From Nonlabens ponticola (GTDB taxonomy: Bacteria > Bacteroidota > Bacteroidia > Flavobacteriales > Flavobacteriaceae): 32,000 nt of DNA. The notes under the pieces were generated by a model that saw only the letters and a program-made list of their open reading frames with translations, ran no database searches and was not told where the DNA came from. How positions within the stretch are numbered: position 1 is the stretch's first letter; each line of letters starts with the position of its first letter. Position numbers and translations under genes: made by a program. Location of the stretch: assembly GCF_003966335.1 (NCBI RefSeq), contig NZ_CP034549.1, forward strand, positions 930,001 through 962,000. The letters are read 5' to 3'. Positions 4,605 to 7,783 of this stretch are shown here, one piece after another.

Positions 4605-4613
4605 GTTATCTGT
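4597..4613. terminator. short hairpin embedding both convergent stop codons (candidate bidirectional terminator)
   Basis: acagata (4597-4603) pairs with tatctgt (4607-4613) around a 3-nt loop. There is an A-run 5' and an AT/T-rich stretch 3'. The TAG of 4179-4604 and the TAA of 4606-6081 both lie inside it. The stem is AT-rich and weak. Confidence 0.3.
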
Positions 4614-6081
4614 ATAATTTGAGGTCTACCGTGTTGTAGATAACCTGCAAAAGGTCATCGTCTGTGTAAGGTTTGCCTAGAACCGCATGATAGCCGTTGC
4701 GCAAATACTTTTTGTTTTCTTTACCGTCGTTGTTCAAAGAAAGTGCTAGATACTTAAGAGTACGATTACTCATGTTACGTACACTTTTCATCATTTTTAA
4801 GAGCTCTATGGCGTCTGTTTGATTGATGCTATTGGCAACTATGATGAGATCTAGATCATCGTCTGTCTCTACCATATCTATTATTTTTCTGGCATCTGTA
4901 AGCACGTAGGTGTCAAAATTTTTGGTAGTAGTCAGGATTTTTACAGCTGTCATTTGTGCTGCTGCCTGATCTTCAACAATAAGCGTCTTGATTTTGCGCT
5001 TAAGGTTAACTGCTGCAATTTCATTCAAAACAGTGGTCTTGACTGAACCTGATTTCGAAACAGGTGCCTTGAAATTCAGTGCGTAAGAAATGGTGCCAGC
5101 GTCAGAGACATCGATACTTAAAGAGGCATTCATCAAGTCCAGCAATTCTCTACAAATGTTAAGCCCTAGGTTTTTAGATGCTTTAAGTCGAATTTCTTCT
5201 TTGGACTTTGTAATTATTGTTGAATTGTCAGCTGCAAATATTTGATCTATGGTGATTGATATACTTGAAATATTGGCTCTGCGCTGCAGTTCACTCACCT
5301 TAACTTCAATAGTATGATCATGAGATTGATAGATGACAAATCTCAATAAATGATTGATTGACTGCAGTAATTTATCAGGGTCGCCTGAGATGTAAGACGG
5401 GACATTTTTATCGATTGACACGTTTAATCGCGATCCCAGTAATCTCAATTGATTTTCAAAACCATCCAAAGCTGTGTCTAAAAGTTCCTTTAAAGAAAAT
5501 GCTGCCTGATTAAATTTGATAGACAAACCGCTGCTGTGAGAGGCTTGCTGCATGCCTTCTACCAGGCTTAATATTCCAGACACTTGTGACCTAATAGAAG
5601 TCATTAATTGTTCTTGCTCAAGGCTTAATGGAGACTTTGCCATCATGCTAGAAAAAGCATGAATTAAAGTTAATGGATTGCGTATCTCACTAGAGAAATT
5701 CTCTAGAAATTGGTCTTTAAAAGTATCGCGCTCTTTAAGTAAATCATTCTTGAGCTGTAAGATCTCATTGAATATGAGTGACTCATTCTTGCGCTGGGCA
5801 ATACTTTGAATCCGGTCATAAATAGTGGTAACATCAGCTAGCTTTAAATTTAATCGTTGGGACGTGTAAAGATGAGCCGTGATATCATAAACCTTATCAT
5901 CTATGTGAACCCCATTGAAGGTAGTAGCCTCTTGTAAGTTGTTTGAGTCGATAAATAGAGATTCAAAAAACGGATGAACGTTTGTAATGGCCTCACCAAC
6001 TTGCAGTTCAAAATAATCTTGATTGGATGCTAGAATGATTCCTTTCTCATCACATATGATATTTGCGTATAGATCACTCAT
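4606..6081 (-). CDS. degenerate hybrid histidine kinase / receiver protein (predicted phosphorelay-inactive)
   Basis: 491 aa with these regions in order:
- a PAS-like N-terminus
- a coiled coil
- a DHp H-box-like FLENFSSEIRNPL, where the expected SHEIRTPL histidine is Ser
- an HATPase-like region with N-box LLQSINHLLRFVIYQS (Asn replaced), no DxGxG box, and G2 reduced to SKNLGLNICRELLDLMNASLSIDVSDAGTISYALNF
- a C-terminal receiver-like domain (TLIVEDQ...DLIIVANSI...ALSL...LGKPY) whose phospho-acceptor Asp position is Ala. Confidence 0.7.
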   Translation of the reverse strand: MSDLYANIICDEKGIILASNQDYFELQVGEAITNVHPFFESLFIDSNNLQEATTFNGVHIDDKVYDITAHLYTSQRLNLKLADVTTIYDRIQSIAQRKNESLIFNEILQLKNDLLKERDTFKDQFLENFSSEIRNPLTLIHAFSSMMAKSPLSLEQEQLMTSIRSQVSGILSLVEGMQQASHSSGLSIKFNQAAFSLKELLDTALDGFENQLRLLGSRLNVSIDKNVPSYISGDPDKLLQSINHLLRFVIYQSHDHTIEVKVSELQRRANISSISITIDQIFAADNSTIITKSKEEIRLKASKNLGLNICRELLDLMNASLSIDVSDAGTISYALNFKAPVSKSGSVKTTVLNEIAAVNLKRKIKTLIVEDQAAAQMTAVKILTTTKNFDTYVLTDARKIIDMVETDDDLDLIIVANSINQTDAIELLKMMKSVRNMSNRTLKYLALSLNNDGKENKKYLRNGYHAVLGKPYTDDDLLQVIYNTVDLKLYR

Positions 6082-6107
6082 AATAGGGTTTTGTATGGGT
6101 TGACGAT

Positions 6108-6587
6108 CTAAACAATCATTTTTGCCATTTTTTCAAATAGCCTGTTAACATTACTATCTTCCTTGGCGCTTACCATGAAGTCGGCGAAATCTAACTCGGC
6201 AGCTTTTTGTTTAATCGTTCCAGGCGTGAGTAGATCTGTTTTATTAAGGGCAACTAATATGGGCACATTATCAAACTCTTTTTCTAGATATTCTTTGTCT
6301 TCTTTTACTCTTGCATAAGAATTAGGTCTGGTAACATCGCCTACATAGATAAAACCGTGAGCACCTTTTAGATAAGAATTTCTAATCTGGTCTATATTTT
6401 CAGTTCCTTCAGTATCCCAAAGAATGAGTTTTATTTCCTCATCATTGATGACAACAGTTTTTTTGAGAATATGAACTCCTATCGTGACTTTATAATCTTC
6501 TGAGAACAGGCCTTCAACATACTTTCTTAGTAAGGATGTTTTGCCTACACCAAAGAGACCTAAAACAACAATCTTTTTTGTTTTCAT
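6108..6587 (-). CDS. Rab/Ras-like small GTPase
   Basis: 159 aa with these motifs:
- G1: GLFGVGKTS
- switch I: YKVTIGV (Rab-like TIGVDF)
- G3: LWDTEGTE
- Rab-like: YLKGAHGFIYVGDVT
- G4: NKTD
- G5: SAKE

Its start overlaps the stop of the upstream gene (ATGA at 6584-6587). Confidence 0.85.
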   Translation of the reverse strand: MKTKKIVVLGLFGVGKTSLLRKYVEGLFSEDYKVTIGVHILKKTVVINDEEIKLILWDTEGTENIDQIRNSYLKGAHGFIYVGDVTRPNSYARVKEDKEYLEKEFDNVPILVALNKTDLLTPGTIKQKAAELDFADFMVSAKEDSNVNRLFEKMAKMIV

Positions 6588-7417
6588 GAAGAGATTTGTA
6601 CTGAGTTTTGTGAATATATCTTAATCAAGATAGAATCTAGATCTTCCTTGTTGTCTTTACTTTTTAACTCATTGATCATCGCACTTACTTTCAATGCTAG
6701 ATCGTCAATTTCACTCTCTAATCTTTCTGTAATAGTGCCGCTTACAGCAGTGGCTATGTAGTAGTTAGGCGTATTGAATAAATGTATTTGATATAGATCG
6801 TATTCAATGCTGGTAAGCTTTTGATTATGTTCTAAAAATGCATCCTCTACAAATGATTTTATGGCCGTTAGCATACCGCTCACCATATCTTCATCCATAG
6901 TTGATTTCTCAAAAAAGCTGCCTAGTAAAATCCCAGAGTCAGAATCAATAACAAACACTTGATCAATTTTTGCAGACGCCGTCTCTGATAAAATAATCTC
7001 ATGTTCCTTTACTCCTGTAAACTTTGAGATGATTCGTCTTTTCCAGCTGTCAAACGATAAGTTTTCTTTTGTTTTTTGATCTATTTTTTCTGATAGAATC
7101 TTTATTTCTTGAGCGATGTATTTTTTGATCATTTGACCAAGGATTGGGTACAGCGCTTCTACCACTTCATCACGAGATTCTGCTATTTGTTTTTTAAGGG
7201 TTTTTGTAATTACAGGACCTAATTCCTGCGGTATATTTCTAGCAAACTCTTTGAGCTCATCCTCGATGATGGGATGTAATTTTTCTTCAAGTTTACTTCT
7301 TGTAGAGATGGTATCTTCTAGGATCTCGATCTTTTGCGCAATACTGTCTGCATAGTCGCGCTCATCTGTAAGTAATAGATGCTTTAAAAGTTCGAGTTTA
7401 TCCGCTTCTTCCATCAT
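6584..7417 (-). CDS. coiled-coil protein with C-terminal Roadblock/LC7 (MglB)-like domain
   Basis: 277 aa. The N-terminal half is helical/coiled-coil. The C-terminal ~110 aa (IDQVFVIDSDSGILLGSFFEKSTMDEDMVSGMLTAIKSFVEDAF...YQIHLFNTPNYYIATAVSGTITERLESEIDDLALKV) aligns by eye with the MglB/Roadblock pattern (VVFLVDKNGQLISSAG...LASLTAGNVAAMGGLAKL...LYMTIVGSRVVLVVIFD). The domain call is an inference. Confidence 0.55.
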   Translation of the reverse strand: MMEEADKLELLKHLLLTDERDYADSIAQKIEILEDTISTRSKLEEKLHPIIEDELKEFARNIPQELGPVITKTLKKQIAESRDEVVEALYPILGQMIKKYIAQEIKILSEKIDQKTKENLSFDSWKRRIISKFTGVKEHEIILSETASAKIDQVFVIDSDSGILLGSFFEKSTMDEDMVSGMLTAIKSFVEDAFLEHNQKLTSIEYDLYQIHLFNTPNYYIATAVSGTITERLESEIDDLALKVSAMINELKSKDNKEDLDSILIKIYSQNSVQISS

Positions 7418-7429
7418 TAGAATGCGGTT

Positions 7430-7783
7430 TTATGCCTTTATTTTTTCGGCAAGTGAGATTAATGCATCACCTAGCATATTGCGATCCACTTTAGCAGCAT
7501 CCATGTCGCTCAAGTCTTCCTCGATCTTAGTTTCCAGATCGCTAATGCGTATATTAAGATCAGTAGAGAGTGAATCTATAGATTTCATCAACTCATCTCT
7601 AGTATCATCAACAAGGTCTTGAAGTTCCTTGCGTTTCTTGAGGATGTCTTTCTTAAGTAAATCAAACTCGCTATCGTATTGTTGGATGTTTTCACCAAAA
7701 ATAAGATTGCGTATTGCATCTAGCTTTTGGTTATTGTCAACAGCCTGTGAGTTGTTGCTTTGCTCGGTTTTATTTGCCGCCAT
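7430..7783 (-). CDS. small coiled-coil protein, first gene of the GTPase operon
   Basis: 117 aa with ATG start, charged and helical. Its N-terminal motif KLDAIRNLIFGENIQQY resembles KLELLKHLLLTDERDY of the next protein. It lies 12 nt upstream of the next gene. Confidence 0.55.
   Translation of the reverse strand: MAANKTEQSNNSQAVDNNQKLDAIRNLIFGENIQQYDSEFDLLKKDILKKRKELQDLVDDTRDELMKSIDSLSTDLNIRISDLETKIEEDLSDMDAAKVDRNMLGDALISLAEKIKA

Follow-up and report, generated by a model that had tools for sequence, protein, structure and literature searches.

A Group 1 Rup GTPase module with a degenerate histidine-kinase output protein in Nonlabens ponticola

Sequence comparisons identify four adjacent minus-strand genes of N. 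ponticola as this organism's copy of the Group 1 Rup (Rup1) GTPase signalling module. Membership was tested for each gene separately, and DUFY, DUFX, the GTPase and the N-terminal domain of the output protein all fit. The module itself is not new, as a comparative-genomic survey had catalogued it by 2014 (Wuichet and Søgaard-Andersen, PMC4316618). The output protein of this copy is a histidine-kinase homologue whose kinase core and receiver aspartate, judging from aligned orthologues, were lost stepwise in the Nonlabens lineage. We consider it probable that this identity, the mechanism proposed below and a Nonlabens-specific kinase loss with non-catalytic retention of the protein hold together.

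The genes and their domains lie as follows within the window, i.e., the whole 32,000-nucleotide stretch that was analysed:

7430..7783, minus strand: gene 1, DUFY, 117 aa (ORF call)
6584..7417, minus strand: gene 2, DUFX, 277 aa (ORF call)
7016..7417, minus strand: N-terminal helical half of DUFX, residues 1-134 (long helices in AlphaFold2)
6587..7015, minus strand: C-terminal domain of DUFX, residues 135-277 (predicted longin/Roadblock-superfamily fold)
6108..6587, minus strand: gene 3, Group 1 Rup (Rup1) small GTPase, Rab-like, 159 aa (ORF call and Pfam Ras)
4606..6081, minus strand: gene 4, output protein, soluble hybrid histidine-kinase homologue, 491 aa (ORF call and Pfam)
5767..6081, minus strand: N-terminal domain of the output protein, residues 1-105, module-specific, with HPFF (36-39) and AQxKNE (95-100, including Gln96)
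5512..5745, minus strand: DHp/HisKA domain, Ser131 at the phospho-His position
5062..5511, minus strand: degenerate HATPase_c-like catalytic/ATP-binding domain, N-box and G1 lost
4627..4989, minus strand: pseudo-receiver domain, Ala416 at the phospho-Asp position, Lys470 kept (Pfam Response_reg, E = 2e-8)

The ORF call reproduced exactly the tight packing described in an earlier note on this DNA, with spacings of 12 nt, -4 nt (an ATGA overlap) and 26 nt. The same gene order was found in all 80 Flavobacteriaceae loci examined, as far as the contigs extend (80, 80, 77 and 76 of 80). These loci cover at least 15 named genera, in a sampling that was not designed for prevalence. The neighbours vary by genus: fbp, GNAT and aspartate kinase genes accompany the module in 51-52 loci, and unrelated genes do so in Maribacter. 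Thus, the four genes form a single unit, constant in order despite changing flanks, which bears out the earlier suggestion of a conserved GTPase-centred signalling module and answers its call for a neighbourhood comparison across relatives. This conservation, together with more than 1289 homologues of DUFX found by sequence search, excludes chance ORFs. None of the four proteins contains a transmembrane-like segment (Kyte-Doolittle 19-residue maximum ≤1.21).

The published Group 1 Rup system consists of a coiled-coil DUFY, a DUFX with or without a fused OmpA domain, a Rab-like Rup that lacks the catalytic Gln, and an output protein with an invariant Gln in its N-terminal domain (PMC4316618). 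The outputs named there are histidine kinases and GGDEF/EAL proteins, and Table S2 of the same paper lists six Flavobacteriia with the order DUFY, DUFX, Rup. The N. ponticola locus shares the four components and their order, the missing Gln in G3, and homologous DUFY, DUFX and output N-terminal domains. It follows that, contrary to what had been supposed, the composition is already known in Bacteroidota. The literature holds no experimental study of any module member that we could find, in agreement with PMC4316618.

The GTPase belongs to the Pfam Ras family (E = 2e-33). Its 60 best PDB sequence matches are eukaryotic Rabs throughout, with Rab23 first (3e-30), so it was rightly described as Rab-like rather than MglA-like. 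The motifs G1 (GLFGVGKTS, residues 10-18), G4 (NKTD, 115-118) and G5 (SAK, 140-142) and the switch-I Thr35 are present; G3 reads WDTEGT (57-62), without the catalytic Gln. In the Ulvibacter clade, an additional paralogue of this GTPase adjoins stand-alone output N-domain proteins.

DUFX has neither a Pfam match nor a PDB sequence match, and a Roadblock signal is absent at the sequence level. Its profile matches 4033 clusters at 50% identity and recovers, at E ~1e-50, long forms of 520-635 aa that end in an OmpA domain, in some cases together with BON. The Flavobacteriaceae proteins lack both this tail and the transmembrane helix or membrane anchor found in DUFX of other phyla; the NCBI name "cell envelope biogenesis protein OmpA" is a carry-over from the long forms. 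In the AlphaFold2 model the N-terminal half forms long helices at low confidence (pLDDT ~40-55), and it includes a highly conserved motif at about residues 62-100 (IPxxLGPxIT...VVEALYPIxGxMIKKY).

The C-terminal domain, which contains an invariant helix motif (SGMLTAIKxFVEDAF), was modelled alone with pLDDT 75.5 and pTM 0.70, and shows the topology b-b-a-b-b-b-a-a. For this model and for that of full-length DUFX alike, all 50 of the top 50 Foldseek PDB matches fall in the longin/Roadblock superfamily, at modest E-values (~1e-4 to 2e-4) and from models of moderate pLDDT (56.6 for the full-length protein). Matches of the domain include AP2 sigma, zeta-COP, Mon1-Ccz1, CPLANE, Sec22b (TM 0.64-0.71), Ykt6, TRAPP, p14/MP1, Rag C-terminal domains and LC7. 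The Roadblock-like domain proposed earlier for about residues 150-260 is therefore upheld as to superfamily, which is predicted from these models; the modelled topology is longin-type and not that of classic Roadblock/MglB. In PMC4316618, by comparison, DUFX is a domain of unknown function, and no MglB-like partner is predicted for Rup GTPases.

DUFY, the first gene of the module, encodes a cytoplasmic coiled-coil protein with weak coiled-coil-type Pfam matches alone. It lies directly upstream of DUFX in 80/80 loci, and its orthologue profile matches, at 97% hhalign probability (E = 3e-11), the 122-aa protein encoded ahead of the OmpA-fused DUFX of locus L085. No relation between DUFY and the N-terminal half of DUFX was detectable.

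The N-terminal domain of the output protein has no Pfam match. Its profile aligns over 104 colinear columns with the N-terminal domain of sigma54 activators encoded after Rup elsewhere (hhalign 81%, E = 1.2e-5). Gln96 falls on Gln122, Lys98 on a Lys and Glu100 on Glu126 of the sigma54-activator profile, where the Gln and Glu are invariant. The domain also occurs as stand-alone copies, and one type of it precedes differing outputs: a soluble hybrid histidine kinase in Flavobacteriaceae, but a sigma54 activator at all five loci with an OmpA-fused DUFX that were sampled from other lineages. This suggests that it is the GTPase-coupled element of the output protein.

The profile search called for in the earlier note found HisKA (3e-8) and the receiver in the output protein in addition to Ras in the GTPase; HATPase_c stayed below the cut-off (0.028), and HAMP had no match. 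The H-box reads FSSEIRNPL instead of the FSHELRNPL of orthologues, His244 and Phe248 occupy the N-box Asn positions, the G1 DxGxG is missing, and part of G2 remains (NLGL). A soluble hybrid kinase stripped of its phosphotransfer residues had been noticed before, and for N. ponticola this description holds: the protein would be unable to autophosphorylate or to relay phosphate.

The comparison among 69 full-length orthologues places this loss in one genus. The H-box His is kept in 68/69, both N-box Asn in 68/69 and the G1 Asp in 65/69, with N. ponticola alone among the 69 lacking the phospho-His; the Maribacter orthologue matches HATPase_c at 3e-26. The receiver phospho-acceptor column holds Asp in 44, Lys in 15, and Ser or Ala in 10. 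Of the 60 columns conserved at ≥90%, 23 deviate from the consensus in the N. ponticola protein, compared with 12-13 in other Nonlabens and 0-3 in other genera. At the phospho-His position, Ser in N. ponticola stands beside Tyr at locus L081 and a retained His at L083. The alignments thus indicate that the kinase decayed within Nonlabens and that dead catalysis is a recent state of this genus, not the general plan of the module.

The earlier note had read the phosphorelay-dead two-component scaffold as designed to serve a GTPase switch as its effector or adaptor, within an architecture new to Bacteroidota. The N. ponticola protein taken by itself fits such a design, and its intact ORF and still constrained N-terminal, DHp and receiver domains make a non-catalytic role in Nonlabens plausible. 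However, the architecture was published in 2014 with Flavobacteriia included, and the loss is recent and confined to a single genus, which leaves this reading unlikely. Somewhat less likely still is that the fourth gene is merely decaying, with the module being lost or cut to three genes and the 491-aa protein idle. Relaxed constraint would fit the changing residue at the phospho-His position, the far fewer consensus departures in the GTPase (3/44), DUFX (3/61) and DUFY (6/32), and an identity to the nearest relative of only 43%, where the remaining genes of the module reach 62-63%. The ATP-binding domain evolves fastest (35% amino acid identity to the nearest relative vs 47-48% for the other three domains), and its pN/pS of ~0.7, obtained on saturated data, is almost neutral; a partial loss of function of the entire output protein may have occurred. 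Two near-invariant residues of the N-terminal domain are also gone (a Gln kept in 68/69 is Ala6, and a conserved Cys is Gly57). Against mere decay, about 490 codons have stayed free of stops and frameshifts in at least five diverged Nonlabens-clade genomes (N. ponticola, L001, L002, L005 and L081) with saturated synonymous sites. In addition, HPFF, Asp66, Tyr88, Gln96, Asn99 and Glu100 of the N-terminal domain, the DHp framework residues Arg134 and Pro136, and the 26-nt spacing to the GTPase gene are all retained. Because the ORF remained intact across saturated divergence, a non-catalytic role for the Nonlabens pseudokinase is likely.

Kinship with MglA/MglB polarity switches or actinobacterial conservons, which the earlier note had raised, is very improbable. 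The module does join parts of the same kinds, combining a small GTPase with a protein of Roadblock-superfamily fold and a histidine-kinase homologue; the top Foldseek matches of full-length DUFX include MglB (6h5b_B), and conservons are likewise four-gene operons with analogous G-protein/two-component wiring (CvnA histidine kinase, CvnB Roadblock, CvnC DUF742, CvnD GTPase). However, Rup and MglA are separate families, and CvnD is of the MglA family (Group 2) (PMC4316618). CvnA kinases are membrane-bound and bear HAMP (PMC4316618), whereas the kinase here is soluble and receiver-bearing and has another N-terminal domain. Neither Robl_LC7 nor DUF742 gave a Pfam match to any of the four proteins, neither a nesting of the GTPase within MglA groups 1-5 nor a significant profile match of DUFX to MglB or CvnB was seen, and conservons lack an equivalent of DUFY. 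The Rup module also differs from the Myxococcus switch in the longin-type topology and long helical N-terminal half of DUFX, and nothing points to a polarity or motility role for it. That the genes form a mobile island, for anti-phage defence or another accessory function, can practically be dismissed, even though small NTPases and degenerate kinases are present in some defence systems. PADLOC gave nothing significant; its weak ZorA coiled-coil matches (E = 0.001) lie in the helical half of DUFX (residues 28-121). GC of positions 4001-8000 is just slightly lower (0.34-0.39) than the 0.40-0.44 over most of the remaining window, the module holds a fixed chromosomal position beside fbp in 52/80 genomes, and its loci span at least 15 named genera.

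Within the Group 1 Rup reading, a mechanism can be proposed in which all interactions and directions of signal flow are inferred. Lacking the catalytic Gln, the Rab-like GTPase would depend on partner proteins for its GDP/GTP cycle. In eukaryotes, longin GEFs and Roadblock GAPs act as nucleotide-state regulators. DUFX might bind the GTPase through its C-terminal domain as such a regulator or as a platform, and its helical half might pair with DUFY. There is a likeness to eukaryotic pairs of a Rab and a longin GEF (Mon1-Ccz1/Rab7, Fuzzy-Inturned (CPLANE)/Rab23, TRAPP/Rab1), in both the GTPase sequence and the modelled longin domains. However, DUFX offers a single longin-like domain and no tri-longin heterodimer, without sequence similarity or a membrane-trafficking context; the resemblance is one of predicted fold alone.

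The GTP-bound GTPase would then dock on the N-terminal domain of the output protein, whose invariant Gln (Gln96 in N. ponticola) may be contributed in trans. Docking would control whatever output domain lies downstream, be it a kinase, as in Flavobacteriaceae, a sigma54 activator, as in the five loci sampled from other lineages, or, according to PMC4316618, a GGDEF/EAL protein. In N. ponticola the output protein is probably still kept, without catalysis, as a partner of the GTPase or as a dimeric scaffold. It shares with other degenerate histidine kinases and pseudo-receivers the loss of the phospho-His, of the N-box and G1 motifs and of the receiver Asp while DHp and receiver folds are kept, but here the loss appears recent, stepwise within one genus and set in a GTPase module.

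Three points thus extend what had been published on the Group 1 Rup system: the predicted placement of the DUFX C-terminal domain in the longin/Roadblock superfamily, a kinase loss specific to Nonlabens, and the retention of an intact pseudokinase ORF, with a likely non-catalytic role.

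Open reading frame calling returned four genes on the minus strand; the spacings between them are 12 nt, an overlap of 4 nt and 26 nt, as in the earlier note. We refer to them by the names of Wuichet and Sogaard-Andersen 2014 (PMC4316618).

The four genes of the module in the window
DUFY: 7430-7783, minus strand, 117 aa, open reading frame, coiled-coil protein
DUFX: 6584-7417, minus strand, 277 aa, open reading frame
Rup GTPase: 6108-6587, minus strand, 159 aa, Pfam Ras
Output protein (kinase homologue): 4606-6081, minus strand, 491 aa, with HisKA, sub-threshold HATPase_c and Response_reg

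The 277-aa protein has 100% identity to an NCBI protein of Nonlabens ponticola. Pfam placed the 159-aa protein in the Ras family (E = 2e-33) and recognized HisKA (3e-8) and Response_reg (2e-8) in the 491-aa protein, with HATPase_c (0.028) falling below the cut-off. The Pfam scan gave no family match for the 117-aa and 277-aa proteins, and no transmembrane-like segment was found in any of the four.

A scan for the 277-aa family, with one genome per species, yielded at least 546 confirmed matches, from which we kept 80 loci of Flavobacteriaceae or close relatives. Wherever the contig reaches, the order and orientation of the four genes are constant (80, 80, 77 and 76 of the 80 loci). The upstream flank is composed of fructose-1,6-bisphosphatase, GNAT and aspartate kinase genes in 51-52 of the 80 loci, while unrelated genes (glycosidase, glycosyltransferase, oxidoreductase, esterase) flank the module in Maribacter and others. 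Since the flanking genes vary between loci, the four genes form a conserved unit. The module is real, conserved and operon-like. A terminator scan found no minus-strand terminator-like site inside 4606-7783, and in a sigma-70 promoter scan promoter-like sites were no more numerous than in shuffled controls.

Two neighbors deserve a mention. The class-1 fructose-1,6-bisphosphatase gene (7821-8831, minus strand) ends 37 nt upstream of DUFY, an adjacency present in 52 of the 80 loci; we found no terminator-like hairpin in 7784-7820 between the two, and co-transcription of fbp with the module is possible. On the other side, a gene for a 141-aa TerB-domain protein (4179-4604, plus strand; Pfam 5e-9) converges with the kinase-homologue gene, leaving 1 nt between the stop codons, and a TerB-domain gene adjoins the module in 46 of the 80 loci.

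According to the earlier note, no characterised Bacteroidota system of this composition is known. The four genes correspond to the Group 1 Rup (Rup1) system, defined by comparative genomics in PMC4316618, so its kind has already been described, though never characterised, and it is not a new class. In that description, DUFY is an adjacent, conserved coiled-coil protein of the cytoplasm, and DUFX is likewise adjacent and often continues into a transmembrane helix and an OmpA domain. The Rup GTPase is a single-domain protein with eukaryote-like G1-G5 motifs, devoid of the catalytic G3 Gln. The output is a histidine kinase or a GGDEF/EAL protein whose N-terminal region contains an invariant Gln, which the authors speculate acts in trans. 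Table S2 of PMC4316618 gives the order DUFY>DUFX>Rup for Cellulophaga, Croceibacter, Flavobacteriales HTCC2170, Flavobacterium branchiophilum, Krokinobacter and Lacinutrix, with GTPases of 161-165 aa in these Flavobacteriia. The paper reports no experiments on Rup members, leaves DUFX unassigned and states that no interaction of Rup proteins with MglB is predicted. A 2024 preprint treats Rup1 as the bacterial group clustering with eukaryotic Rab/Ras/Rho/Ran and with Asgard RasL. Our literature search returned no later study of Rup1 and none assigning a longin domain to DUFX, which does not prove that none exists.

Several observations connect the Flavobacteriaceae loci with this description. 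DUFY lies upstream of DUFX in 80 of 80 loci, and the profile of the 117-aa family aligns with the small protein upstream of an OmpA-fused DUFX (hhalign probability 97%, E = 3e-11). The DUFX family profile matched 4033 clusters at 50% identity; homologues of 520-635 aa were matched over profile positions ~5-250 (E ~1e-50) and carry a C-terminal OmpA domain, with or without BON. The DUFX of the window has neither the transmembrane helix nor OmpA, like the Bacteroidetes entries of Table S2. Orthology of the GTPase to Rup1 rests on synteny with genera of that table (the Lacinutrix and Cellulophaga loci L006, L031, L064 and L069).

Public family names among the DUFX homologues P0001-P0120 ('cell envelope biogenesis protein OmpA', 'OmpA/MotB', 'hemerythrin') look like carried-over misannotations. 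Neither an OmpA nor a hemerythrin domain is present in the DUFX proteins of Flavobacteriaceae; the OmpA name originates in the long DUFX forms of other phyla.

The comparison with other GTPase and kinase modules gave negative results. MglA/MglB membership fails on the GTPase family, which is Rab-like, and on the Pfam families. An actinobacterial conservon (CvnA-D) combines an MglA-family GTPase, the Roadblock/MglB homologue CvnB, CvnC (DUF742) and a membrane histidine kinase with HAMP. Here there was no match to the conservon Pfam families, the GTPase is Rab-like and the kinase homologue has no transmembrane-like segment. An anti-phage defence island is excluded by the PADLOC scan and by the stable chromosomal position. 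No component had a significant match in PADLOC-DB (E of 0.001 or weaker only), and the ZorA matches lie within the helical N-terminal half of DUFX.

The Rup GTPase of the window carries the motifs GLFGVGKTS (G1), WDTEGT (G3), NKTD (G4) and SAK (G5). It has Thr at the position of Ras Gln61, so the catalytic G3 Gln is absent. In a PDB sequence search the best 60 matches were all Rabs, with Rab23 at the top (3e-30). This agrees with the Rab-like character proposed from the sequence, a likeness already known before this analysis.

Close to nucleotide-binding motifs, two substitutions set the window GTPase apart from its family: in the P-loop, GLFGVGKT replaces GHFGVGKT (His11 to Leu), and in the G4 region LNKTD replaces GNKxD (Gly114 to Leu). 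Both positions are otherwise conserved. At two of the loci with OmpA-fused DUFX, the GTPases (L085, 6615-7142; L086, 3156-3650) have WDIAH and WDLAH in place of the Flavobacteriaceae WDxEG, and the G3 Gly (DxxG) is replaced as well.

The earlier note also proposed a Roadblock domain at residues ~150-260 of DUFX. No Roadblock match in the 277-aa protein was returned by Pfam (E up to 1), NCBIfam or a PDB search with the family profile. The full-length AlphaFold2 model has a pLDDT of 56.6 overall and ~75 in the C-terminal part, which is folded as a-b-b-a-b-b-b-a-a with a short helix before strand 1. Residues 135-277 modelled alone from 65 sequences gave a pLDDT of 75.5, a pTM of 0.70 and the topology b-b-a-b-b-b-a-a. 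For both models, the best 50 Foldseek matches in the PDB were all longin or Roadblock domains, with longins first. The domain model matched the longins AP2 sigma, zeta-COP, Mon1-Ccz1, CPLANE, Sec22b (TM 0.64-0.71), Ykt6, VAMP7 and TRAPP, as well as the Roadblock domains of p14/MP1, the Rag C-terminal domains and LC7; MglB (6h5b_B) was among the top matches of the full-length model.

The Foldseek E-values of the domain are modest (~2e-4), which makes the longin/Roadblock fold a supported prediction and not a demonstration. The superfamily fold is thus predicted where the note placed it, but in the domain-only model as a longin-type b-b-a-b-b-b-a-a arrangement rather than the a-b-b-a-b-b-b of Roadblock/LC7, and with no sequence profile to match. 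These models support membership of the DUFX C-terminal domain in the longin/Roadblock superfamily; they do not support the Roadblock family proper. We did not find this predicted fold reported, and the prediction goes beyond the 2014 description.

Conservation in DUFX is highest in two stretches, residues ~62-100 (7120-7231; IPxxLGPxIT...S.D.VVEALYPI.G.MIKKY) and the C-domain helix SGMLTAIKxFVEDAF. Despite its conservation, the former is the region of lowest AlphaFold2 confidence (pLDDT ~40). Internal paralogy was rejected both between DUFY and the N-terminal half of DUFX and between the kinase N-domain and DUFX (hhalign probability <1% in each case).

The output protein begins with an N-domain (residues 1-105) marked by the motifs HPFF and AQxKNE; all 69 Flavobacteriaceae orthologues have Gln at the position of Gln96. 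N-domains had no family match in a Pfam scan. The N-domain of the window's kinase homologue is too diverged to serve as a query, and a homologue search with it found nothing; with an alignment as the query, the proteins found were mostly stand-alone N-domains rather than full-length kinases.

The same N-domain precedes either a kinase or a sigma54-activator output. In hhalign it aligned with the N-domains of sigma54 activators over 104 colinear columns (probability 81%, E = 1.2e-5), and Gln96 of the window fell on their invariant Gln. We infer that Gln96 is the invariant Gln of PMC4316618. At all five sampled loci with OmpA-fused DUFX, the gene after the GTPase encodes a sigma54-dependent activator (AAA+ plus HTH_8) with this N-domain (L085, 7146-8516; L086, 3660-5042; L088, 6808-8169; L089, 6927-8681; L091, 6635-8020). 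By contrast, the typical outputs in PMC4316618 are histidine kinases and GGDEF/EAL proteins only.

Additionally, seven loci of the Ulvibacter clade (L010 of Ulvibacter antarcticus, 6810-9039, together with L004, L008, L011, L019, L020 and L030) carry an extra GTPase paralogue of 163-165 aa between DUFX and the usual GTPase. Next to it are one or two kinase N-domains that stand alone (127-223 aa, HPFFESL); this arrangement suggests that N-domain and GTPase co-evolve as a pair.

We aligned 69 full-length orthologues of the kinase homologue. The H-box His and both N-box Asn are kept in 68 of 69, the sole exception being the window; the G2 Gly residues are kept in 66-68, and the G1 Asp in 65, the four exceptions being Nonlabens sequences. 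The receiver phospho-Asp is less constant: its column holds Asp in 44 sequences and Lys in 15 from the Ulvibacter-like clade, and the other 10, Nonlabens among them, have Ser or Ala. The window protein has Ser131 in the H-box, His244 and Phe248 in the N-box, no G1 and Ala416 in the receiver, and so lacks the H-box His, N-box Asn, G1 DxGxG and receiver Asp of a functional hybrid histidine kinase. In Pfam, HATPase_c and Response_reg reach 3e-26 and 1.5e-19 in the Maribacter orthologue, as against 0.028 and 2e-8 in the window.

Departures from consensus at columns at least 90% conserved
Kinase homologue, window: 23/60
Kinase homologue, other Nonlabens: 12-13/60
Kinase homologue, other genera: 0-3/60
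GTPase, window: 3/44
DUFX, window: 3/61
DUFY, window: 6/32

Identity to the nearest relative is 43% for the kinase homologue and 62-63% for the other three genes. The most diverged part is the ATP-binding domain, at 35% compared with 47-48% for the N-domain, DHp and receiver. The N-box is lost in both of the closest metagenomic relatives, L081 (5327-6805) and L083 (5308-6132), and at the phospho-His position L081 has Tyr and L083 has His, where the window has Ser. These relatives show that the kinase decayed stepwise. The phospho-His replacements look independent, or the site may have become unconstrained after loss of the ATP-binding residues.

The claim of a phosphorelay-dead kinase therefore holds for N. 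ponticola, where the residues are lost, but the loss is recent, confined to one genus and not a property of the system, as the kinase core is intact in 65-68 of 69 orthologues. A purpose-built dead-kinase adaptor, as the earlier note imagined it, would accordingly hold only for one genus. Simple decay of the gene is possible, and the excess of departures in the kinase homologue is what it would leave behind; against it argue the intact reading frames and the domain-specific conservation. The ORF of ~490 codons is intact in every Nonlabens-clade genome examined, and the window protein keeps the signature residues of the N-domain and the framework of the DHp. Synonymous sites are saturated relative to the nearest relative, so dN/dS is not estimable, and pN, amino-acid identity and ORF integrity were used instead. 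We consider it more likely that the kinase homologue is retained for a non-catalytic role than that it is a drifting pseudogene. The N. ponticola module carries a lineage-specific pseudokinase variant.

A working scheme for the module would begin with DUFX binding Rup through its longin/Roadblock-like domain and serving as a GEF, a GAP or a platform, with Mon1-Ccz1, TRAPP, Ragulator and MglB as analogues. The helical N-terminal half of DUFX would be the partner of DUFY. Rup-GTP would then dock on the output N-domain and set the activity of the downstream output domain, and the N-domain may insert Gln96 as a catalytic residue in trans. All parts of the module would be cytoplasmic in Flavobacteriaceae, while in other phyla OmpA would tether DUFX to the envelope. 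Phosphotransfer is presumably excluded as the last step in N. ponticola, where the pseudokinase may still serve as a GAP, an effector or a dimeric scaffold.

A bolder reading, which we think improbable, is that DUFX and Rup1 constitute a bacterial pair of longin regulator and Rab-like GTPase related to eukaryotic longin-GEF/Rab pairs. It is drawn from two observations: the best relative of Rup by sequence is Rab23, and the model of the DUFX C-domain matches, among others, the GEF family of Rab23 (Fuzzy-Inturned/CPLANE) and Mon1-Ccz1. The pairing is suggested by fold similarity only, in a predicted model. If true, the regulatory logic of Rab plus longin would predate eukaryotes or have been exchanged with them, it would be testable in culturable Flavobacteriaceae, and the Nonlabens pseudokinase would be a natural separation-of-function variant of the output.

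A longin/Roadblock-like DUFX would give Rup the type of regulator used by small GTPases in other systems; the published view, in which Rup acts without MglB-like proteins, would then need revision. The N-domain and its invariant Gln precede both kinase and sigma54-activator outputs, and by the account of PMC4316618 also GGDEF/EAL proteins; the domain is a candidate coupling or GAP element that can be mutated. Finally, the Nonlabens pseudokinases are a natural experiment that could reveal whether the output protein does more than phosphotransfer.
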